Positions 52,410-63,586 are shown, counted from the first letter of the stretch. The stretch is 64,000 nucleotides of DNA from an uncultured bacterium (GCA_963848965.1 CAWKFG010000004.1:736001-800000), one strand, 5' to 3'. Notes: generated by a model not told the origin, from the sequence alone. Numbers and translations: made by a program.

Positions 52410-54086
52410 TTATCCTTGGCTACCAAATTTAGGGTCCATCCAAGCTGTATTCCAATAGTGTGCTCCAATAGCTTGAGCTGGTATTTTACCATCTGGAGTT
52501 ACCACTTGTTTTTTTGGATATTCATCTGCCCGTGCAGGATAAATAGTTTGAGGAGGTAAAACTATATCTTGCGTATCCTTACCTGCTGCTAATGCAAATG
52601 CTATAGTAAACATAAAAGGACCTGTTTCAACAATAGTTTTAAACCCATTATTAGGTGCAGATTTTATGTAATCTGGAGCATTCTCGCTCAAGTTACGTTT
52701 GATCATTTCTAATGCCTTATTAACAACAGGATGATCAGGACAAGCTCCAATAAAGGCATTACATAAGTAGACCGACATAGGCTCTAGACCTACAATCATG
52801 TCATACGCCTTGCTATAGGGTAATAATGATTGGAATAGTTCATAATCGGTATCCAAATAATAGCCACCAAAAAGACGAAGCAACTCAAGACGAATAATAT
52901 CAGTAGCTTTACCGAATTTCTTCTCTTTAATTGCAGATTTATACAAGTCACCTGTTACAAATTTTGTTGTATCAAGGTCTTTCAATTCACGTAAGATAAT
53001 AGTTGGATGATTTTCAAGCAATTGTGCAAGCTTAGGTAACTTTTCTTTGCTTTCTATCCAGAAATAGTGAGTCCATCCCTCTGAAGGCATATTATGCTCA
53101 ATACTATTTTCAAGCCATTGAATATACTGAGGTGAAGGATCTTTTGGATTATCATCTGATGTTACCCAGATTTTATGAGTAACAAGAGGCGTTCTATATA
53201 CGGTAGAATCAAGCAAGTCTGGATCTTGCTTTAAAAGTGACGCAATGTTATTACGCGCATATAAAGTTTGTCTTTGTCGATCTATTTCAGCAAGACTGAG
53301 TCCCTCTTTGTGTCCCACAGAATCTGTGTAGTCATAGCTTCCATTAAATTCACGCCTAAATGCTTTTTCTTCATCTGAAATAGTAGGATCATTCAATTGT
53401 TCATCATTAAACTTCTTAGAAGTAAAATCAAAGTGATGATATTGATGAAGGAAATGACGATCTTGTACCATTTCAATATTTACTTGAAGATAGCTATCTT
53501 CAGTAAATTTAGGATTTAAAAAGAAGAGAGGATTATCGTCTACTGGCTTGATAGAACGAACAATAATACCATTCTGCTTTTCAAACACATACAACTCATA
53601 AGGCTTTATAGTAACTTCATCGCTCTTAAAGAAATCAGGTTTATCTTTAGCCTCATACTTTACTTTTAATGTAATTGATTCACTTGTTTTATTTTCAATA
53701 ACAAAACCATCTTCAATACGCAATTTCTTGATAAACGAATTAAAGTCTCTTCGAGCATCATAAAGAGCCTTTTGTGAGAGAATCATTTTCTTAAAGAGAT
53801 TTTTTTCAGATTCCTTCACATGCTTTAATTGAGGTTTTTTAGCTCGTATAAGCTCAAGAAAACTCTTAAGCTTTCCTTGCTTCTTTCTTTTAGATAGTTT
53901 CTTTTTAAAGTTTTTCTCGTGCTTTAACCGAAACCTTTCAGCTTTTGCACGCCTAAAAAAGCTCTTATGCTTTCCTTTCTTCTTTAGACCATGAGCCGGA
54001 GGTGTTTTATGTTTAATAGCTGCATGAGCTTCACACCCTCCAAATGTTAATAAAAGCAAATAGAATATTAAAAAAGATTTATTCAT
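52410..54086 (-). CDS. Exported DXD-motif glycosyltransferase (GT32/GT44-like) with Lys-rich N-terminus
   Basis: TP..THKIWV, TDIIRLELLRLFGGYYLDTD, NAFIGACPDHP, ETGP, HYWNTAW. Confidence 0.85.
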   Translation of the reverse strand: MNKSFLIFYLLLLTFGGCEAHAAIKHKTPPAHGLKKKGKHKSFFRRAKAERFRLKHEKNFKKKLSKRKKQGKLKSFLELIRAKKPQLKHVKESEKNLFKKMILSQKALYDARRDFNSFIKKLRIEDGFVIENKTSESITLKVKYEAKDKPDFFKSDEVTIKPYELYVFEKQNGIIVRSIKPVDDNPLFFLNPKFTEDSYLQVNIEMVQDRHFLHQYHHFDFTSKKFNDEQLNDPTISDEEKAFRREFNGSYDYTDSVGHKEGLSLAEIDRQRQTLYARNNIASLLKQDPDLLDSTVYRTPLVTHKIWVTSDDNPKDPSPQYIQWLENSIEHNMPSEGWTHYFWIESKEKLPKLAQLLENHPTIILRELKDLDTTKFVTGDLYKSAIKEKKFGKATDIIRLELLRLFGGYYLDTDYELFQSLLPYSKAYDMIVGLEPMSVYLCNAFIGACPDHPVVNKALEMIKRNLSENAPDYIKSAPNNGFKTIVETGPFMFTIAFALAAGKDTQDIVLPPQTIYPARADEYPKKQVVTPDGKIPAQAIGAHYWNTAWMDPKFGSQG

Positions 54087-54999: not shown

Positions 55000-55004
55000 A
55001 ACCC

Positions 55005-55034
55005 TTGCATTAAATGCTTTATTTCTGCTATACT
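55005..55034 (+). promoter_or_regulatory. Putative sigma70 promoter of the ABC exporter
   Basis: TTGCAT-N18-TATACT with extended TG. Confidence 0.45.
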
Positions 55035-55275
55035 AAAAATATACTGTTTAAAATTTCAAAAATTTATGCGTGTTATGATAATTATTAACGAACAAATCAC
55101 AGTCTTTATTCCCACGAGTGTTTAACTCCCAGACCATTTTTACATGGTACTGGGAAGCAGATCTCTTACTCTTCAATTTTTATTCTAGGTAGAATTCTGT
55201 CTTCCTTTATATTCCCTTTTATTGCTTTTATATACGTCTCTTTAGACGGTCTATGTTTATTTAAAGGAAACAGCT

Positions 55276-56019
55276 ATGAAACAGATACTACTTGCAATTC
55301 AGAATATTTCTAAAGCATATAATCATACTCTTGCAGTCAAAGATGTATCGCTTACTATTTACGAAGGTGAGATACTTGGTCTACTAGGCTCTAATGGAGC
55401 AGGAAAGACAACGCTTTCTTCACTTATTGCAACATTACATCCACCTACAAGCGGCACTATTTTGTATAAGGGCACTTCTATTTATAAAAATGTTCCTGCG
55501 TATCGAATGAATATTGGTTTCTGTCCACAAAAACCAAACTTTGATTCTACAATGACAGTAAAAGAAAATCTTCTTTTTGCAGGAAGATACTTTGGCCTCT
55601 CTTACGAGCAAACAGAGCAAAGAGTAGCATTTCTTATACAAGAGTTTGGTCTTAGTGCACATGCAGATAAGCAACCGGATGTGCTTTCAGGAGGATATAA
55701 ACAGCGGCTTCTTATTGCTAGAGCGCTGGTTCATAATCCTACTATTCTCATTCTTGATGAGCCTACTGTTGCTTTAGATCCACATGTACGCAGACAAGTA
55801 TGGAATTCTATTAAGCATCTTAAAATGCTTGGTATCACTGTTATTTTAACTACTCATTATTTAGATGAAGCAGAGTACCTTGCAGATAGGGTATGTATTA
55901 TGGATAAAGGGGTAATTAAAGTGATTGATACTCCTGAAAACTTGCTTTCTACTTATGGTAAAAAAACGTTAGAAGAAGTATTTATTGATTATATGGAAAA
56001 ACAAGAGGAACTCTCATGA
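55276..56019 (+). CDS. ABC-2-type exporter ATP-binding subunit
   Basis: GSNGAGKTT, LSGGYKQRLLIARAL, LILDEPT, LTTHYLDEAE. Confidence 0.92.
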   Translation: MKQILLAIQNISKAYNHTLAVKDVSLTIYEGEILGLLGSNGAGKTTLSSLIATLHPPTSGTILYKGTSIYKNVPAYRMNIGFCPQKPNFDSTMTVKENLLFAGRYFGLSYEQTEQRVAFLIQEFGLSAHADKQPDVLSGGYKQRLLIARALVHNPTILILDEPTVALDPHVRRQVWNSIKHLKMLGITVILTTHYLDEAEYLADRVCIMDKGVIKVIDTPENLLSTYGKKTLEEVFIDYMEKQEELS

Positions 56020-56801
56020 ATACAGTACAACCATTGAAAACCTTTAGATTTTTATTATGGCGCGATTTACGCCTATTAAGATCTGGTTTTATACACTATC
56101 TCATTGACACGCTTATATGGACAGGCTCTAATGTCATCATCAGTGGTTATTTATTACCTTTGCTTGGCATGGGCCGTTCATATGGTAATTTTATGCTTGT
56201 AGGATCAACTATTAGCATGTGCTTTTTTTATGCAATAAATAAAAGCCATGATCTTGTAGCTGATTTTGAAGGAAGTAAGAATATTACCTATGATCTTGTA
56301 CTTCCTATTGCTTCATGGGCAGTGTTCTTTAAAATAGCCCTGAGCTTTGCACTACAAGCAGCTCTTGTTAATATCTTAGCAATTCCTTTAGGCAAAATAC
56401 TTCTAGGAGAATCTCTGCATATGAGCTTATTTGCATGCAGTAAAGTGATAATGGTATTCAGCCTCATTGCCATTTTCCTTGGCTTCTTTGGTCTCTGGGT
56501 TGCAAGTTGGGTAAAGCATCCATCATTGTATCCTCATGTATGGATGCGCTTTATATTGCCTTTATGGGCTTTTGGCGGCTATCAGTTCTCTTGGTATACA
56601 CTCAAAGGTGCTTATCCTTTGATAGCGTATGCTAGCTTACTAAATCCAATGGTTTACACATTTGAAAGCCTCCGAGCAGTACTATTAGGACAAGAGGAAT
56701 ATATTCCATTAGCAGTATGTATTTTTATGCTTACTATGTTTACTCTCCTGCTTTGGGTTCATACATTGTATCTTTTAAAGAAACGGCTTGACTATATCTA
56801 A
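56016..56801 (+). CDS. ABC-2-type exporter permease
   Basis: About six TM segments, NPMVYTFESLR motif; ATGA overlap with the ATPase. Confidence 0.88.
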   Translation: MNTVQPLKTFRFLLWRDLRLLRSGFIHYLIDTLIWTGSNVIISGYLLPLLGMGRSYGNFMLVGSTISMCFFYAINKSHDLVADFEGSKNITYDLVLPIASWAVFFKIALSFALQAALVNILAIPLGKILLGESLHMSLFACSKVIMVFSLIAIFLGFFGLWVASWVKHPSLYPHVWMRFILPLWAFGGYQFSWYTLKGAYPLIAYASLLNPMVYTFESLRAVLLGQEEYIPLAVCIFMLTMFTLLLWVHTLYLLKKRLDYI

Positions 56802-56803
56802 CT

Positions 56804-56833
56804 ACAGGGTAGGATCTTCCTACCCTGTTTTTT
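56804..56833 (+). terminator. Rho-independent terminator after the ABC exporter
   Basis: ACAGGGTAGGA-TCT-TCCTACCCTGT followed by TTTTT. Confidence 0.85.
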
Positions 56834-56926
56834 GTATCTTTTAAACATGTATTACCTTGTCTTTTTTCACTCTTAAAGTATTATTGAAAAGATAGCGGTA
56901 TGATATAAGAAACCTTAGGTCTTTCT

Positions 56927-57682
56927 ATGTTTTTTTCTTTAAAACAAGGTATATACGCAGCTCAAAGTGATCTTAATGTTATACTTCTTGATGCAAACAG
57001 AGATAAGTACTTTAGTATAAGTTCTGAAGTAGGAACCATTTTATTAAGAATTCTTAATACTGAATTTGATTATAGCAATGGAATGTATCGTGCCCTTTCT
57101 GTTCCTGAGGAAGAAAACAGTTTTGATTACTGGATACAGTATTTTATTGAATCAGAGTTTATTGAGCCTCGAGAAACAAAAAGAGATACCATACACTTTA
57201 CTCGTTCTTTAGTATCTGGAGGTCTTACAGGATATCAATGGGATAGAAAGGATCGATTAGTATCTGTTTTTAAAATTTCTCCTGTACTTATTGTACAACT
57301 TCTTTGGATACTTATGAAAGTAAACTTTGCTTTAAAAAGAAAGGGTATACAAGGTGTTCTCAATATGCTAAGAAAGCTTAGCATAAAGCATAAATCTCAA
57401 GAAGTTCATCCTTCACAGATAGAATACTTATCAAACGCTCTTGATGCAGCATGCGCTTTATATCCAAAAAAAATATATTGTCTAGGCTGGGCTACAACGT
57501 TTACTTTAGTGGCACTTAAAAAAGGTTGGAGATGTAACTTGGTAATTGGAGTACAATCACCACCTTTTTATGCTCATGCATGGGCTGAAATAAACAACCA
57601 CGTAGTTAATGATGATAAAATTATCCAAGAACGGCTTGTTGTACTTCTTAAAGAGCCTTTTACAGATAATGTACCTTACTAG
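56927..57682 (+). CDS. Lasso peptide B protein (fused RRE and transglutaminase-like leader peptidase)
   Basis: N-terminal RRE-like VILLD...DKYFSI; C-terminal YCL...LVIGVQSPPFYAHAWAE...VVND with the Cys-His-Asp triad. Confidence 0.92.
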   Translation: MFFSLKQGIYAAQSDLNVILLDANRDKYFSISSEVGTILLRILNTEFDYSNGMYRALSVPEEENSFDYWIQYFIESEFIEPRETKRDTIHFTRSLVSGGLTGYQWDRKDRLVSVFKISPVLIVQLLWILMKVNFALKRKGIQGVLNMLRKLSIKHKSQEVHPSQIEYLSNALDAACALYPKKIYCLGWATTFTLVALKKGWRCNLVIGVQSPPFYAHAWAEINNHVVNDDKIIQERLVVLLKEPFTDNVPY

Positions 57683-57705
57683 TATCTCTAGCGAAAGAAA
57701 AAGCT

Positions 57706-59493
57706 ATGCCTCTTATTGCAGGAGCATTTTTAAATCATCATAGTAACAGCTCTTCTCTTGTTCATACATTACTTACTTGTGCAGAATCTAAAATTACTCT
57801 TGATAAGCTTGTATTCACTTATACAAACCAAAGAATAGTTTTAGTAGCAGGTAAAAAAATGCATGAATCATCTGCTGAAAAAGTAATAAATATAGGCCAG
57901 GGATCTGGTATACTGCTTGGACGACTTTTTCAAAAAGGTACTAGTACATTAGTACAACACTTAGAAGAAGAGGAACTAGAGAAGATAAGAGAATCGCAAG
58001 GTAGATGGTTAAGTGAGCGGTACTGGGGCAGGTATCTTGTTATACTGCTAGATGAAGAGAGTATAACAATTTATAGAGACCCACTAGGAGGTATACCGCT
58101 CTTTATTACACAGACAGCTCAAGGAGTAGTGTTCTCTACAGAGCTCTCAATGCTCTATGATGCATTAGAAGAAAAGCCAGTACTTGATTGGACTTACTTT
58201 ACTTCCTATGTAGCAGCGTCATTTACGCTTACTACTGCAACGCCATTTAAAGGAATAGAAGAGGTATTTCCAGGCTCTTATGTAAGCATATCAGCAGAAG
58301 GGTATAAAACAGGTCTTTTTTGGGATCCAACACAGATAGATGTAAAAGAGGAGAAAGAGCTAGAGGAGCAAATACTTGAGACATTTTCAAGCTGTATAAA
58401 GGCATGGACACAAGAAACGGAAGGCATAGCACTAGAGCTATCAGGAGGTCTTGATTCTTCTGCTCTTCTTATACTATTAAAACAGGTAGCTCCTCGTATG
58501 AATATCACTTGTTTTAACTATTTTCATCCTCGTGTAGCTTCTTCTGATGAAAGAAACTATGCAGCGCATGTTGCTCAAGAGTGCAATGTAGAGCTTTATT
58601 GTATAGATCAAAGCCAAGTTTTACCTTTAAGCAGCAATTCAATTCATAAAACAAATAAACCAAGTTCATTTTTACTGCAGGAAGCTCTTAATAGAGAAAT
58701 TACTTCTTTGGTATCTAAAAAAGGTACTTATGAATTTATGAGCGGACAAGGGGGTGATCATCTTTTTCTTGCTCCTCCACTCGTTGAATCTCTGGCAGAT
58801 TATTTTCTTGATAACGGTATAAGAGGAATAAGCTCTAAACTTCATGAGATGTGTGCCTATTATCGAACACCATTCTTAAGCACAGTTGGCCAATCATTAA
58901 ACGCTTTAATTTCTTATTACAGAAGTAAAATAGATCGTATAATTGCAAACTCAGAGATAGAAGACTGGATGACTCCCTCTTTTTTAAGGAGTATAGATCA
59001 AACTATTTATCAACCGCCCTTTTGGAGACAATTAAAGCAAGTGTACCCAGCTAAAGCACAGCATATATACGATATGTACAGCGCACTCCTTTATACAGAT
59101 CAAGGGCATAGAATGGAAAGCAGACCTGTAATTAATCCGTTTTTATCGCAGCCATTTGTAGAACTTGCACTTTCTATTCCTACCTATCAGCTGTATAAAC
59201 AAGAGCATGACCGGTTTCCTTTTAGAAATGCAATAAGTAGAATAAGCACAGCACCAAGTATATGGCGTAAAGATAAAGGAGAAACTACAGGCATTAGCGT
59301 CTTTGCTCTCAATACAAACTATAAGTATATTTGTAAATTGTTGCTCGACGGTAAATTTGTGCAGCATAATCTTATTGATAAAGATAAACTCTATGACCAT
59401 ATCAACCATTGTAAAAATGGTAAATCGTTTAACTTATGGCCTCTTATGAATCTTATATCTGTCGAGCTCTGGTTTGATTCATGGAACCTATAA
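57706..59493 (+). CDS. Lasso peptide cyclase C1 (asparagine synthetase-like)
   Basis: LELSGGLDSS, SGQGGDHLF, NPFLSQPFVELALSIP, WRKDKG; no N-terminal glutaminase Cys; follows the B gene. Confidence 0.92.
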   Translation: MPLIAGAFLNHHSNSSSLVHTLLTCAESKITLDKLVFTYTNQRIVLVAGKKMHESSAEKVINIGQGSGILLGRLFQKGTSTLVQHLEEEELEKIRESQGRWLSERYWGRYLVILLDEESITIYRDPLGGIPLFITQTAQGVVFSTELSMLYDALEEKPVLDWTYFTSYVAASFTLTTATPFKGIEEVFPGSYVSISAEGYKTGLFWDPTQIDVKEEKELEEQILETFSSCIKAWTQETEGIALELSGGLDSSALLILLKQVAPRMNITCFNYFHPRVASSDERNYAAHVAQECNVELYCIDQSQVLPLSSNSIHKTNKPSSFLLQEALNREITSLVSKKGTYEFMSGQGGDHLFLAPPLVESLADYFLDNGIRGISSKLHEMCAYYRTPFLSTVGQSLNALISYYRSKIDRIIANSEIEDWMTPSFLRSIDQTIYQPPFWRQLKQVYPAKAQHIYDMYSALLYTDQGHRMESRPVINPFLSQPFVELALSIPTYQLYKQEHDRFPFRNAISRISTAPSIWRKDKGETTGISVFALNTNYKYICKLLLDGKFVQHNLIDKDKLYDHINHCKNGKSFNLWPLMNLISVELWFDSWNL

Positions 59494-59494
59494 A

Positions 59495-59650
59495 CTACAT
59501 GCCCTTTGGTTTAAAATAACCATAATTTTCTGCACATGGTGTTGCTTTACCTAAGGTATATTCTGAAACTTTTGCAAGCTCTGTGATAAGGGCAGCTTTC
59601 TGATCTTCCATAATCTTTACAATTGGCTTTTGCTTTGTATTTTCTTCCAT
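59495..59650 (-). CDS. Lasso precursor A1: MEENTKQKPIVKIMEDQKAALITELAKVSEYTL-GKATPCAENYGYFKPKGM
   Basis: Manual translation (51 aa, absent from ORF track); GAGGAGG RBS; Thr(-2), Gly1, Glu8. Confidence 0.9.
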   Translation of the reverse strand: MEENTKQKPIVKIMEDQKAALITELAKVSEYTLGKATPCAENYGYFKPKGM

Positions 59651-59680
59651 AGTTTTTCCTCCTCTTATAGAATTACTTGT

Positions 59681-59711
59681 AGCAGAAGTAGATTTTATAT
59701 CTACTTCTGCT
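59681..59711. promoter_or_regulatory. 13-bp perfect hairpin between precursors A2 and A1
   Basis: AGCAGAAGTAGAT-TTTAT-ATCTACTTCTGCT. Confidence 0.7.
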
Positions 59712-59716
59712 TACAT

Positions 59717-59863
59717 TTACCGTATTTGTCTTCCTATATTTTCTGCAAGTCTACCACTTTTTCCTAAGGTAGTTTTTGAAACAGTGCCTATCTCTGTAAT
59801 AAGAGTAACTTTAGAAGATACCTTTTGCTTTTTACGAAAGCACCAATTACTAAGTATTTTCAT
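59717..59863 (-). CDS. Lasso precursor A2: MKILSNWCFRKKQKVSSKVTLITEIGTVSKTTL-GKSGRLAENIGRQIR
   Basis: 48 aa from the ATG at 59863 with GAGGAG RBS (track ORF is over-extended); Gly(-8), Thr(-2), Gly1, Glu8. Confidence 0.9.
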   Translation of the reverse strand: MKILSNWCFRKKQKVSSKVTLITEIGTVSKTTLGKSGRLAENIGRQIR

Positions 59864-59961
59864 AAGACCTTCTCCTCTATTTATAAAGTGAAACAATGTA
59901 TAGCACATGCAAAAACCATATATACTAATCTTGTACATCAAACTTTTGTAGCTTTTGCTTA

Positions 59962-60132
59962 CTAATTATCTTTTAATGGAGGCCAATAAGTGCGTTTAAA
60001 AGTTTTTTGAAGGCTCTCTAAGTATTTTCCGCCTCTGCCCAGAGTAATTTTTGAAACAGCTCCTAACATTTCAATAGGAGACACCTTATAGGAGGCATCT
60101 TTTTTATTAATGAATATAATAGATCTTTTCAT
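59962..60132 (-). CDS. Lasso precursor A3: MKRSIIFINKKDASYKVSPIEMLGAVSKITL-GRGGKYLESLQKTFKRTYWPPLKDN
   Basis: Manual translation (56 aa); AAGGAG RBS; Tyr(-17), Gly(-8), Thr(-2), Gly1, Glu8. Confidence 0.9.
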   Translation of the reverse strand: MKRSIIFINKKDASYKVSPIEMLGAVSKITLGRGGKYLESLQKTFKRTYWPPLKDN

Positions 60133-60160
60133 AGGTGTTTCTCCTTACTCTAAACAATAT

Positions 60161-60337
60161 TTATACAGGGTTCCAAGGATGTTTCTTAAAGGTCCTTCGA
60201 AGACTTTCTAAATATTTTCCTCCTCTACCTAAAGTAAGCCTTGAAACGTTTCCTAACATTTCAACAGCAGATACTTTGTAAGAAGCACTTTTCTGTTGAA
60301 CGCAACCTGTTGTGTGTAAATGTTTTTTCTTTTGCAT
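60161..60337 (-). CDS. Lasso precursor A4: MQKKKHLHTTGCVQQKSASYKVSAVEMLGNVSRLTL-GRGGKYLESLRRTFKKHPWNPV
   Basis: Manual translation (58 aa); AAGGAGGT RBS just after the C2 stop; Tyr(-17), Gly(-8), Thr(-2), Gly1, Glu8. Confidence 0.9.
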   Translation of the reverse strand: MQKKKHLHTTGCVQQKSASYKVSAVEMLGNVSRLTLGRGGKYLESLRRTFKKHPWNPV

Positions 60338-60354
60338 GACACCTCCTTACGTTA

Positions 60355-62112
60355 TTAAGAGATATTCCATGTTTTAAACCATAGTTCTGTAGAAAGTAAA
60401 TTTATTAATGGCCCTATATTTACTGGGCTACTATGACACCATTGATTAATATACGTATAAAGTTTATCTTTATCAATGAGATTATGTTGCACAAATTTAC
60501 CTTCAAACAAGAGCTCACATATCTGCTTATACTGAACATTAAAAGCATAGATAGTAACTGCAGTTGTATCCCCTTTATCTTTACGCCATATATTTGGTGC
60601 CTTACTTATCCTACTTATCGCATTTCTAAAAGGGAATCGGTCATGTTCCTGCTTATACAGCTGATAGGTAGGAATAGAAAGCGCAAGCTCAACAAGCGGT
60701 TGAAATAAAAATGGGTTAATTACCGATTTACCTGGTATTCTTTGTACCTTATCCACAGTAACAAGTGCATCATAGAGCGAAACTATATGAGAAAGCTTAC
60801 CTGGATATATTTTAGTATTATCGTGCAAAAAAAGCGTATCATTCTTTACTTGCTCCATAAAAGCGCTATTCATCCAATGTTCACGCTCTAAAGATGCAAG
60901 AAGATGCCTTTTATGTGAAGTATAGTAACGCATTATCTCCATACCTGTATCTTTTATAACTTGTATAAGCGACATTCGATAATAAGCTGCTATCTCAGAT
61001 ATTTTAGAGCTTATTCCTCGTGTACCGCGAATAAAAAAATAATCTGCAAGAGATTCAACAAGTGGAGGTGCAAGAAAAAGGTGGTCCCCTCCATGCCCAC
61101 TCATAAATTCACAGTTCTTCTGAGCAACTAAAGCAGCAGTATGCTTACACATTGCTTCTTCTAATAACAAAGGATGAGGCTTACTAGCTCTTAATTGAGG
61201 AAGCATACTCAATGATATATGCTCACTCAAATCTATACAATGCAGTTCTGCATCACATTCCTGAGCAACTTGAGTTGCATAGTTTCTTTCATCAGAAGAA
61301 GCTACTCGAGAGTGAAAGTAATTAAAGCACGTGATAGGTAGAGTAGGAGCTACCTGTTTGAGCAGTATAAGAAGAGCAGAAGAATCAAGACCTCCTGATA
61401 GCTCTAGTGCTATGCCTTCTGTTTCCTGTGTCCATGCCTTTATACAGCTTGAAAACGTCTCAAGTATTTGCTCCTCTAGTTCTTTCTCCTCTTTTACACC
61501 TATCTGTGTTGGATCCCAAAAAAGACCTGTTTTATACCCTTCTGCTGTTATGCTTACATAAGAGCCTGGAAATACCTCTTCTATTCCTTTAAACGGAGTT
61601 ACTGTAGTAAGAAAATCTGCTGCTACATAGGAGGTAAAGTAAGTCCAGTCAAGTACTGGCTTTTCTTCTAATGCATCATAGAGCATTGAGAGCTCTGTAG
61701 AGAACACTACTCCTTGAGCTGTCTGTGTAATAAAGAGTGGTATACCTCCTAGTGGGTCTCTATAAATTGTTATACTCTCTTCATCTAGCAGTATAACAAG
61801 ATACCTGCCCCAGTACCGCTCACTTAACCATCTACCTTGCGATTCTCTTATCTTTTCTAGCTCCCATTCTTCAAGATTTTCTTTAAGAACTGAGCTTCCC
61901 TTTTCAAAAAGTCGGCCTATAAGCATTCCAGTAGTATGGGTAAAGACCTTGAGCTTTTCGGCAGAAGATTCTTCATTTCTCACCCCACTTTGTATGATAA
62001 AGTTATAGTTTTCTACCGTTGCCCACTGCTTACAAAGCTCTTTAGTAACCGGGTTAATTGACAATGTACGAGCAGTTTTTTCCTTTAAAAAAGCCCCTAG
62101 TAATAAAGGCAT
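60355..62112 (-). CDS. Lasso peptide cyclase C2
   Basis: LELSGGLDSS, SGHGGDHLF, NPFLFQPLVELALSIP, WRKDKG; paralog of C1, directly upstream of A4. Confidence 0.92.
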   Translation of the reverse strand: MPLLLGAFLKEKTARTLSINPVTKELCKQWATVENYNFIIQSGVRNEESSAEKLKVFTHTTGMLIGRLFEKGSSVLKENLEEWELEKIRESQGRWLSERYWGRYLVILLDEESITIYRDPLGGIPLFITQTAQGVVFSTELSMLYDALEEKPVLDWTYFTSYVAADFLTTVTPFKGIEEVFPGSYVSITAEGYKTGLFWDPTQIGVKEEKELEEQILETFSSCIKAWTQETEGIALELSGGLDSSALLILLKQVAPTLPITCFNYFHSRVASSDERNYATQVAQECDAELHCIDLSEHISLSMLPQLRASKPHPLLLEEAMCKHTAALVAQKNCEFMSGHGGDHLFLAPPLVESLADYFFIRGTRGISSKISEIAAYYRMSLIQVIKDTGMEIMRYYTSHKRHLLASLEREHWMNSAFMEQVKNDTLFLHDNTKIYPGKLSHIVSLYDALVTVDKVQRIPGKSVINPFLFQPLVELALSIPTYQLYKQEHDRFPFRNAISRISKAPNIWRKDKGDTTAVTIYAFNVQYKQICELLFEGKFVQHNLIDKDKLYTYINQWCHSSPVNIGPLINLLSTELWFKTWNIS

Positions 62113-62155
62113 ACTCTCGATCTTTCCTATACAAATGTATGGCGCTCATTCTTCA

Positions 62156-63586
62156 CTACAGTAAGTTATATCTTACAAGAGCAAGATCAAACCACTTACC
62201 ATTAAAAGAGTCACCCGCAACTATCACTTTTCCATTCTCTTGCAGTGCTATAGCAAAACTTCTATCATCACCCCCTCTTAAGGAGGTAACCAGTATGCCA
62301 TCGTTGGAAGTACCAAAAGTAGTATCCAGCATCCCTTCAGATGTATAGCGCACAAGGGTAAACTTTTTATGCTTATCCCACTGCACTACCCCGGTAATGA
62401 GTATTTTACCATCTTTTTGTAATACTACACTTTTAGCAAAAGCATTATCAGTACCTAATGGAGTTAAAACTATACCAGTACGACTTTTTCCAAATGTAGT
62501 ATCGGGTGACCCATCTACATTGTACCTCACAAGAAGAAATTCCGCTTTCTGGCTAGTTGTGTTTTTTGCAGAACCTATGGCAAGAATTTTGCCATCTGGC
62601 TGTATTATAACGTCTACAAAAAAATTACATTCTCTACTTGCGGATGTTATGACCATTCCACTTTTATCAGGAGCAAAAGAAGTATCAAGATTTCCATGAG
62701 AATCATATTGTACAATCGCACAATCTGAACTTGCTGACGCAGCCAGAGCAAGATCCCCAAATGAGGTACAATCATCGCTTAACCCTACAACTACGATCTT
62801 CCCACCTTGTTGTAAAGCTGCTGCTAGAGCCTCATCATCTTCCTTACCTATAACTCTGGGCTTAGGTCTCTTGTTTACCTGCAAGATAGTCTTTACATGC
62901 CCCTTTGTTCCAAAAGATATATCAGGAGTTCCATCACTATTATAGCGACTTACAAAGAAGCTACAGTTTATAGCATCCAATGACTCTGGACCTTTATTAA
63001 GGCCTTGGTTTCCTACAGCAATAATTTTTCCATCGTCTTGTAGCACAACTTTAAAATAGTTAGACCAGCTCTTTCCTAGTTTTTCTTTTATTACTCCACC
63101 GCAGCCAAAGGAGCTATCTAAGTTTCCATTTGGATGTAATCTCAAAAGGCCTGCATTACCAAAACCATCATCTCGGTCAAATATTCTTATTACTGCAATA
63201 ATTTTACCATCTTTTTGTACAAGACAATCAATACCAAAAAGCTGAGTATTACTTTGACCAAGAGTTATCAACATTTTACCTCCTAAACCAAAAGAGGTAT
63301 CTAGAGTCCCATTACTATTATAGCGCGCTAAAGCACAAGCAACCCCAGTTGGTTTATTAGTAAAATCCTTATAGGCATCCCCTATTACAAGTATTTTGCC
63401 ATCTTGCTGCACTCTTACATGAATTGAAGGTACTATTTTGTTCACAGTTCCTGAATTCATACCAAAACTGGTCGTAACGATTCCATTATCACCAAAGGTT
63501 TTATCTAAAAGACTCTTAGTTTCCTCCATAGCCTTTATGTATAATGAAATAAAGAGAGAAAGTACAAAAAGCTGTCGTATATTCAT
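62156..63586 (-). CDS. Exported delta-60-repeat (beta-propeller-like) protein
   Basis: Repeated Q.DGKI....G....LARY...G.LDTSFG units; signal peptide. Confidence 0.85.
   Translation of the reverse strand: MNIRQLFVLSLFISLYIKAMEETKSLLDKTFGDNGIVTTSFGMNSGTVNKIVPSIHVRVQQDGKILVIGDAYKDFTNKPTGVACALARYNSNGTLDTSFGLGGKMLITLGQSNTQLFGIDCLVQKDGKIIAVIRIFDRDDGFGNAGLLRLHPNGNLDSSFGCGGVIKEKLGKSWSNYFKVVLQDDGKIIAVGNQGLNKGPESLDAINCSFFVSRYNSDGTPDISFGTKGHVKTILQVNKRPKPRVIGKEDDEALAAALQQGGKIVVVGLSDDCTSFGDLALAASASSDCAIVQYDSHGNLDTSFAPDKSGMVITSASRECNFFVDVIIQPDGKILAIGSAKNTTSQKAEFLLVRYNVDGSPDTTFGKSRTGIVLTPLGTDNAFAKSVVLQKDGKILITGVVQWDKHKKFTLVRYTSEGMLDTTFGTSNDGILVTSLRGGDDRSFAIALQENGKVIVAGDSFNGKWFDLALVRYNLL

Follow-up and report, generated by a model that had tools for sequence, protein, structure and literature searches.

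A probable lasso peptide locus with one leader peptidase, two mosaic cyclases and four precursors in a Dependentiae genome

Can an intracellular parasite with a reduced genome make several lasso peptides, and what would two cyclases do beside a single leader peptidase? These questions are raised by a group of genes at positions 56927-62112 of a 64,000-nucleotide stretch of DNA from an uncultured bacterium (G000:C4:736001-800000, the whole of which is called the window below). Specialised peptide pathways are not expected in such parasites. The genes very probably form a lasso peptide biosynthetic locus of the class II type, carried by a genome of the Dependentiae (TM6/Babeliales), made of one leader peptidase (B) in which an RRE domain is fused to a Cys-His-Asp peptidase, two Asn-synthetase-like cyclases (C1 on the + strand and C2 on the - strand) and four short genes in tandem (A1 to A4). 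A lasso-type locus with one fused RRE-peptidase, two cyclases, four precursors and predicted 8-residue Gly1-Glu8 rings had been proposed in an initial annotation of the window, and the proposal is supported here by profiles, a fold comparison, conserved residues and a precursor hidden Markov model (HMM).

The genome (1.73 Mb in 5 contigs) was placed in the Dependentiae through its GTDB phylum, order and family relatives, one Babeliaceae record corresponding to a genome of its own GTDB family. In the relevant parts of three articles, Dependentiae are described as strictly intracellular protist parasites with reduced genomes (PMC12172432, PMC4776705, PMC6561590), which fits the kind of organism that the initial annotation had supposed. 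Every open reading frame (ORF) named there is present in the ORF list and in the minus-strand sequence. The predicted features of the locus are the following (aa, amino acids).

56927-57682, + strand: lasso B protein, 251 aa (NF033537, PF13471, RRE profile and fold match)
57706-59493, + strand: cyclase C1, 595 aa (Asn_synthase PF00733, 76.1 bits against a cut-off of 21)
59495-59650, - strand: precursor A1, 33-aa leader and 18-aa core GKATPCAENYGYFKPKGM (ORF, motif, HMM E 8.8e-4)
59682-59710, - strand: 12-bp perfect hairpin between A2 and A1 (fold of 59651-59725)
59717-59863, - strand: precursor A2, 33-aa leader and 15-aa core GKSGRLAENIGRQIR (motif, HMM E 1.2e-3)
59962-60132, - strand: precursor A3, 31-aa leader and 25-aa core GRGGKYLESLQKTFKRTYWPPLKDN (ORF, motif, HMM E 6.1e-5)
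60161-60337, - strand: precursor A4, 36-aa leader and 22-aa core GRGGKYLESLRRTFKKHPWNPV (ORF, motif, HMM E 1.6e-6)
60355-62112, - strand: cyclase C2, 585 aa (PF00733, 72.7 bits against a cut-off of 21)
57964-58608 (left arm) and 61231-61872 (right arm), no strand assigned: inverted repeat between the homogenised middle parts of C1 and C2 (I3, 254 nt, 97%; I1, 381 nt, 90%)

C1 and A1 are convergent, a single base separating their stop codons, and C2 lies upstream of all four precursors on the same (-) strand.

The leader peptidase and the precursors

B is the firmest assignment among the enzymes of the locus. Its predicted domains are an N-terminal RRE, at about residues 1-85, and a Cys protease of the transglutaminase fold, at about residues 118-251, joined in a single chain. 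It scores 67.7 bits with the NCBIfam model NF033537 (lasso peptide biosynthesis B2 protein; curated cut-off 33) and 61.1 bits with PF13471 (Transglut_core3; cut-off 26), and the triad C185, H217 and D229 is invariant in an alignment of 24 B sequences; B therefore has the Cys-His-Asp transglutaminase fold of lasso leader peptidases. Another hallmark of lasso clusters, a PqqD-like RRE that is either free or fused to B, was found by profile and by fold, the binding of the leader being only predicted. A profile of 24 B homologues searched against the PDB sequences gave TfuB1 (6jx3_B) as its sole match (E 3e-4, positions 3-73). An AlphaFold2 model of B (pLDDT 90.6, pTM 0.88) returned nothing at E <= 0.001 from the PDB with Foldseek. 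With VIA-align, the same model matches 6jx3_B best, with a Z of 8.3 and an rmsd of 2.4 A for 74 of 85 residues (1-81 of the model); TbiB1 comes second (Z 7.4) and is followed by other RREs, and residues 118-251 align with papain/transglutaminase-like Cys proteases at Z 5-6. A complex prediction of A4 with residues 1-95 of B (given as an alignment) scored 0.00 in a run made without controls.

In all four precursors, the leader ends in VSxxTL and the core has Gly1 and Glu8; each ATG is preceded, at 5-9 nt, by an AGGAG-type Shine-Dalgarno site. The strong ribosome-binding sites, leader ends and ring residues described in the initial annotation are thus borne out in the minus-strand sequence, and its four core sequences match ours exactly. 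Thr at position -2, Gly1 and an Asp or Glu at positions 7-9, by which lasso precursors are recognised, are present in all of them. The start of A2 is the ATG behind GAGGAG, which gives a protein of 48 aa; the ORF list gives a longer form of 74 aa starting with TTG, which is absent from a collection of 15 billion proteins where the 48-aa form is present. All four precursors are called genes in this collection, each of them a singleton cluster at 90% identity. The match of A4 to NF033525 is weak (14 bits, below the cut-off).

We then searched for precursors with a loose regular expression (Thr at -2, Gly1, Asp or Glu at 8-10, and a Met 12-60 residues upstream). It gave 4 matches in the window, all within 59495-60337, and 59 in the genome. 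On 16 related loci of other genomes of the phylum, it gave 1 to 8 matches each (54 in total), mostly in tandem beside B and C; the leaders of these relatives' precursors end in LGxxSxLTL-like motifs and are followed by Gly1 and by Glu8 or Glu9. An HMM was built from the last 12 leader residues and the first 12 core residues of 52 precursors from 16 other genomes, two of the 54 matches (L033:5506 and L028:10738) being left out as they lack the leader motif. Searched against the 33,819 ORFs (25 aa or longer) in the six frames of this genome, the HMM recovered A4, A3, A1 and A2 with the E values listed above; genome-wide, 11 ORFs have E < 0.01 and 13 have E < 0.1. As the model was built only from other genomes and recovers all four precursors, these go beyond a chance pattern match. 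A homologue search with A4 found only A4 itself; the paralogue A3 was also missed, hence this negative is weak.

The initial annotation had not recognised the cores, and indeed their first residues do not occur in three supplementary files of PMC12214591, whose Supplementary Data 1 is presented, in the part of the source available, as a set of 4749 lasso sequences mined with RODEO. All four cores are cationic (3-6 Lys or Arg against 1-2 Asp or Glu, one acidic residue being taken by the ring); A1, A2 and A4 have a single acidic residue each. The computed monoisotopic masses of the cores minus H2O are 1942.907 (A1), 1635.928 (A2), 2963.577 (A3) and 2607.430 Da (A4).

The two cyclases and the proposed pathway

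For both cyclases, the best-scoring models are lasso-type lactam cyclases, ahead of AsnB. C1 and C2 score 118.9 and 108.4 bits with NF033561 (albusnodin/ikarugamycin family macrolactam cyclase; cut-off 300), and 84.9 and 81.9 bits with NF033535 (lasso peptide isopeptide bond-forming cyclase; cut-off 525). Because these scores are far under the NCBIfam lasso cyclase cut-offs, the assignment rests on the superfamily, conserved residues and context. C1 and C2 each retain 43 of the 43 positions conserved at >=90% in 30 related cyclases, including SGGxxS, and the PP-loop of C1 is S246-G-G-L-D-S251. C1 starts with MPLIAG and C2 with MPLLLG, both without Cys2, the residue needed by true AsnB, which occurs in none of the 32 sequences of the clade. 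Both are thus Asn-synthetase-like proteins with a PP-loop and without the glutaminase Cys, as expected of a lasso cyclase. A true asparagine synthetase B (TIGR01536 / PRK09431) was rejected for both proteins: Cys2 is lacking, and the TIGR01536 scores (94.4 bits for C1, 97.7 for C2) are under the cut-off of 267.1. A phmmer search with C1 against the PDB sequences found only 7ylz_A (hydroxyamidotransferase; 3.9e-5) and no chain named lasso cyclase.

C1 and C2 are 65% identical overall, and this identity is unevenly distributed. In codons 1-90, the proteins are 33-47% identical. In codons 91-150, the DNA is 98.9% identical, with 1 synonymous difference per 30 identical codons; the identity stays high until about codon 240, then falls off. 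The near-identical DNA of the middle part, into which the first portion of the ATP-binding domain falls, points to a recent gene conversion. In the codon block 481-510, the proteins are 93% identical with 11 synonymous differences in 28 identical codons, and such a conserved protein with diverged codons indicates purifying selection on an old duplicate. C1 and C2 would therefore descend from an old duplication within this lineage, the middle having been homogenised later and the flanks being old and diverged. Since the two genes face each other, the converted tract is present as inverted repeats (254 nt at 97% and 381 nt at 90%) that are separated by about 2.6-3.4 kb. In quick maximum-likelihood trees, which were rooted on Burkholderiaceae, had SH-aLRT as their only support and gave long-branch and composition warnings, C1 and C2 are sisters (SH-aLRT 100), and the pair groups with the cyclase of a second lasso locus of the genome, described below, and with that of G143 (support 95).

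The layout with one B and two C, which the initial annotation had called unexpected, is indeed unusual. A second cyclase was found in none of the 17 other Dependentiae loci, and none of 83 fetched loci (>=6 kb, with a B gene; about 15 of them identical contigs fetched twice) has two cyclases. In 80 of these 83 loci, the stretch fetched around B includes a C gene; in the remaining 3, B is located at the end of the stretch. That the two cyclases close two rings in each peptide was rejected, A1, A2 and A4 holding one acidic residue each. With two rings thus excluded for three of the four cores, a division of substrates is the simplest reading of the two cyclases: the diverged N- and C-terminal segments of C1 and C2 most likely split the four substrates between them.

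Alternatively, only one cyclase would serve A1-A4, the other carrying out a second modification or acting on other substrates, e.g. orphan precursors elsewhere in the genome. The absence of a second cyclase from all 83 related loci is in line with this, as are at least 7 more precursor-like genes outside the locus at E < 0.01. However, A1, A2 and A4 cannot form a second ring, no conserved position is lost from either paralogue, C1 and C2 are more closely related to each other than to any other cyclase of the tree, and the recent conversion tract suggests that the genome maintains the two as one type of enzyme. We therefore consider this alternative quite unlikely.

The gene content and motifs observed, read with established lasso biochemistry, would give the following pathway. 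The four precursors would be translated from a minus-strand unit C2-A4-A3-A2-(hairpin)-A1. The N-terminal RRE of B would bind the conserved leader segment ..LG/A-x-V-S-x-x-T-L, and its Cys185-His217-Asp229 domain would cut behind the residue that comes after Thr(-2), freeing Gly1. C1 or C2, depending on ATP, would then adenylate the side chain of Glu8 and couple it to the Gly1 amine, closing an 8-residue macrolactam around the tail. The products would be four cationic lasso peptides of 15-25 residues. The stretch 59651-59725, which contains the hairpin between A2 and A1, folds on the - strand at -21.9 kcal/mol (z -5.98, 0 of 200 shuffles as good); this hairpin is a possible attenuator or processing site that would tune the level or the stability of the transcript.

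Export, further lasso genes and the weight of the evidence

The initial annotation had counted an ABC-2 exporter as part of the locus. The features concerned lie upstream of B.

55276-56019, + strand: ABC transporter ATPase, DrrA-like (PF00005, 131.5 bits; TIGR01188 drrA, 235.9 bits, below the cut-off)
56016-56801, + strand: ABC-2 type permease (PF01061, 20.9 bits, below the cut-off of 26.9)
56804-56828, + strand: terminator-like hairpin and T-run, 11 pairs of which 6 are G-C (consensus scan; fold)

It is possible, although we find it doubtful, that export of the peptides and self-immunity are the dedicated task of this ATPase-permease pair, which would then complete an A4-B-C2-transporter cluster. 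A gap of only 125 bp separates the pair from B, which follows it on the same strand, no other transporter is encoded in the locus, and two of the 17 other Dependentiae loci (L025 and L031) have an orthologous pair (ATPases 60% and 51% identical) within 6-9 kb of their lasso genes. However, of the 261 genomes of the phylum, 239 have the permease family and 16 have lasso B, and the single copy of this genome has its best match (54%) in G033, a genome without lasso B. Moreover, the strong terminator-like hairpin with its T-run lies directly 3' of the permease, and promoter-like sites then precede B; the stretch 56795-56930 folds at -34.3 kcal/mol (z -3.83, 0 of 200 shuffles as good). Finally, the relatives use another, fused ABC exporter (about 574-604 aa), which lies beside A/B/C in six of the seven mapped loci and just past the precursors in L021. 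The claim of a locus exporter is therefore not borne out, and the pair is probably a housekeeping neighbour. The ABC-2 pair would form a first transcription unit that stops at the terminator, B-C1 a second and C2-A4-A3-A2-A1 a third. The ABC-2 permease family is multi-copy in many Dependentiae, with up to 6 matches per genome.

A fused permease-ATPase ABC exporter (McjD-like) is absent from positions 55000-62400. Since the relatives carry one, the description of the locus as complete-looking becomes doubtful. The closest homologue of the fused exporter in this genome (56% identical; G000:C4:62094-63929) is about 730 kb away, among housekeeping genes. Export may proceed through it or through the neighbouring ABC-2 pump.

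The same contig carries a second lasso region (G000:C4:82978-99784; the locus L003 spans 84000-103000). It contains a B' gene (L003:8681-9430; 52% identical to B, 66 bits with NF033537), a C' gene (L003:9440-11242) and about 8 precursor-like genes over 17 kb, interleaved with two paralogous MutS-domain proteins (1168 and 1193 aa), an LRR protein and an ankyrin protein. In addition, five orphan precursor-like genes lie far from B and C (G000:C1:407470-407640, C1:432484-432687, C1:448461-448619, C4:417232-417366 and C4:421309-421461); three of them have HMM E values from 2.6e-4 to 5.8e-3, one has 0.041 and one was detected by the regular expression only. Such dispersed lasso precursors would be unusual. 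A literature search for lasso loci with two cyclases or orphan precursors found none described, most subscription journals being outside its coverage. In total, the genome holds two B, three cyclases and 11 to about 17 precursor-like genes in 1.7 Mb. The second locus and the scattered precursors suggest that the peptides matter for life in the host cell, and a role in competition among co-infecting bacteria is possible.

In a genome that is shrinking, the locus might also be a remnant, decaying or silent, whose genes are intact by chance and which yields no peptide; we considered this highly implausible. The locus has no exporter and the patchy distribution (16/261) fits frequent loss, but all seven ORFs are open and full length, the catalytic triad of B and the 43 conserved positions of both cyclases are kept, and the codon block 481-510 of C1 and C2 (93% protein identity, 11 synonymous differences in 28 identical codons) indicates purifying selection. 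The four precursors also have strong Shine-Dalgarno sites, and the genome keeps a second B-C pair with several further precursor genes.

Several points weigh against the locus being a working lasso peptide pathway. C1 and C2 are far under the curated lasso cyclase cut-offs, so that they are distant relatives and not members of NF033535 or NF033561. The locus is without a dedicated exporter or immunity gene, unlike most of its relatives. Seven residues after the ring are close to the shortest lasso tails known, and A2, which has 7, might give an unthreaded branched-cyclic peptide. The lasso product, its expression and its activity are predictions from the genes. The genome sequence comes from an assembly of the metagenome type, with 88.7% completeness and 1.18% contamination. 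The GC content of the locus (0.35-0.37) is the same as in the remaining window and the host contig has 872,875 bp; the locus is therefore not a binning artefact. The 64-kb window contains neither a tRNA gene nor a shift in composition, so that there is no sign of a genomic island. In a search of sequencing runs, one DNA metagenome run contains 10% of the sampled words and no RNA run was found; three read-derived contigs of 151-216 nt on 59070-59699 show no differences or joints.

Two further genes of the window are of note. The N-terminus of the first (52410-54086, - strand, 558 aa) is hydrophobic; the protein also has a region rich in Lys and a glycosyltransferase DXD region (PF04488, 26.7 bits), with a weak match, below the cut-off, to the TcdA/TcdB catalytic glycosyltransferase domain. 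It could encode a secreted, host-directed glycosyltransferase. The second (62156-63586, - strand, 476 aa) directly adjoins C2 and has a signal-like N-terminus and at least 4 DUF5122 beta-propeller repeats (142.9 bits), with no evident connection to the lasso genes.

Distribution and comparison with known systems

Lasso B was found above the cut-off in 16 of the 261 genomes of the phylum and in 11 of the 189 high-quality ones, and the closest relative (P0002) is 69% identical. A scan of metagenome contigs with an alignment of close relatives gave no match; with another alignment it gave 49 loci, none above 43% identity over the full length. Outside the phylum, B relatives were found on a 1.9-Mb Rhabdochlamydiaceae contig (42% identical, with a leader ending in ..VVLGQASKLTL), in metagenome-assembled genomes of Alphaproteobacteria and one of Holosporaceae (31-32%), and in Mycoavidus, Mycetohabitans and Pandoraea (25-29%). 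The Rhabdochlamydiaceae locus (L037, 2147-6909) is part of a chlamydial chromosome and has a lasso gene set of the Dependentiae type: genes for a fused ABC exporter, for B and for a precursor whose leader has this same end, with C encoded on the other strand. Its genes fall inside the Dependentiae clade both in the C tree (support 100, 16-row clade) and in the B tree (support 95), and this nesting suggests, as far as such quick trees allow, a horizontal transfer between unrelated intracellular bacteria. Among the loci of the relatives, L034:13885-14112 (G254) shows two leader-core units in one frame, the leaders ending in TLTM and then QLTQ, each followed by a Gly core; this is either a fused double precursor or the result of a lost stop codon.

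A wider reading, which we hold to be speculative and rather improbable, is that lasso peptides are a horizontally shared tool of intracellular bacteria (Dependentiae, Rhabdochlamydiaceae, Holosporaceae-like Alphaproteobacteria and endofungal Burkholderiaceae, all linked through a single B/C clade), of which this genome would be an extreme case, with peptides that act inside the host cell and with C1 and C2 as a natural domain swap. If so, the peptides would target the host or co-infecting microbes inside the host cell. C1 and C2 would share one B and a near-identical ATP-binding core, their diverged N- and C-terminal segments setting the accepted cores, and the 0.25-0.4 kb inverted repeats could let the intervening segment invert, reshuffling the cyclase halves.

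The pathway itself is already known; what is new is the cores, the layout with one B and two mosaic C, and the load of lasso genes in a 1.7-Mb genome. The surprise expressed in the initial annotation at finding such a pathway in a reduced genome has to be tempered: the family is scattered through the phylum, NCBI names one of the relatives 'lasso peptide biosynthesis B2 protein [Candidatus Dependentiae bacterium]', and the precursor of TM6 GW2011_GWE2_36_25 (L031) corresponds to LP_13922, of phylum 'Undefined', in the available part of the RODEO-derived Supplementary Data of PMC12214591. This automatic protein name and this one unlabelled row of a mined table are the only earlier traces of lasso peptides in the phylum that our searches brought up. 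A search for literature on lasso peptides in Dependentiae found no paper, most subscription journals being outside its coverage. In the collection of 15 billion proteins, nothing else groups with the window precursors at 90% identity, and their cores are absent from the published table of PMC12214591, so that the locus supplies cationic cores unique in public data. Moreover, the mosaic pair C1 and C2, sharing one peptidase and four substrates, could serve to map the determinants of substrate choice in lasso cyclases.

Among the systems with solved structures, TfuB1 of the fusilassin/fuscanodin pathway (6jx3) and TbiB1 (5v1v, 5v1u) have a fold like residues 1-85 of B, with Z of 8.3 and 7.4 over 74-78 of 84-88 residues. 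These are split B1 RREs, 15-23% identical, whereas the B of the window has the RRE and the protease in one chain of 251 aa. The RRE-protease fusion is a proteobacterial habit (McjB, CapB), the solved RREs being separate proteins from Actinobacteria and Firmicutes. The ABCD clusters of microcin J25 and capistruin share with the locus a fused B, an Asn-synthetase-like C, Thr(-2) and a ring between Gly1 and Glu8 or Asp9. They differ from it by a single precursor, a single cyclase and a dedicated exporter of the McjD type, which confers immunity; the locus has four precursors, two cyclases and no McjD-type exporter.

In the other Dependentiae/TM6 lasso loci, B (35-43% identical) and C belong to the same clade, the leaders end in LGxxSxLTL, the cores have Gly1 with Glu8 or Glu9, and there are 1-8 tandem precursors. 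These loci have one cyclase each and, in the seven that were mapped, a fused exporter, which is missing from the window locus with its two mosaic cyclases.

The loci of mycetohabin-15, mycetohabin-16 and burhizin-23, in endofungal Mycetohabitans and Mycoavidus, were reportedly described by Bratovanov et al. in 2020, a study cited in PMC7549694 and PMC12306442. They resemble the window locus in the fused RRE-peptidase B followed by a single-domain cyclase, the Gly1-Glu8 ring, several precursors per locus and a producer that lives inside a eukaryotic cell. They differ in sequence (B 25-29% and C 26-28% identical, forming the outgroup clade in both trees), in the leader end, which is ..CASExTx instead of ..LGxVSxxTL, and in having one cyclase and an ABC gene downstream. 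The mycetohabins are listed in the available part of the published table of PMC12214591 and were isolated from endosymbiotic bacteria according to the relevant part of a review (PMC7549694). In our scan, the Mycoavidus and Mycetohabitans loci have cores identical to mycetohabin-15 as printed in that part of the table. The distant relatives of B thus adjoin mycetohabin-15 cores, which ties the clade to published lasso peptides.

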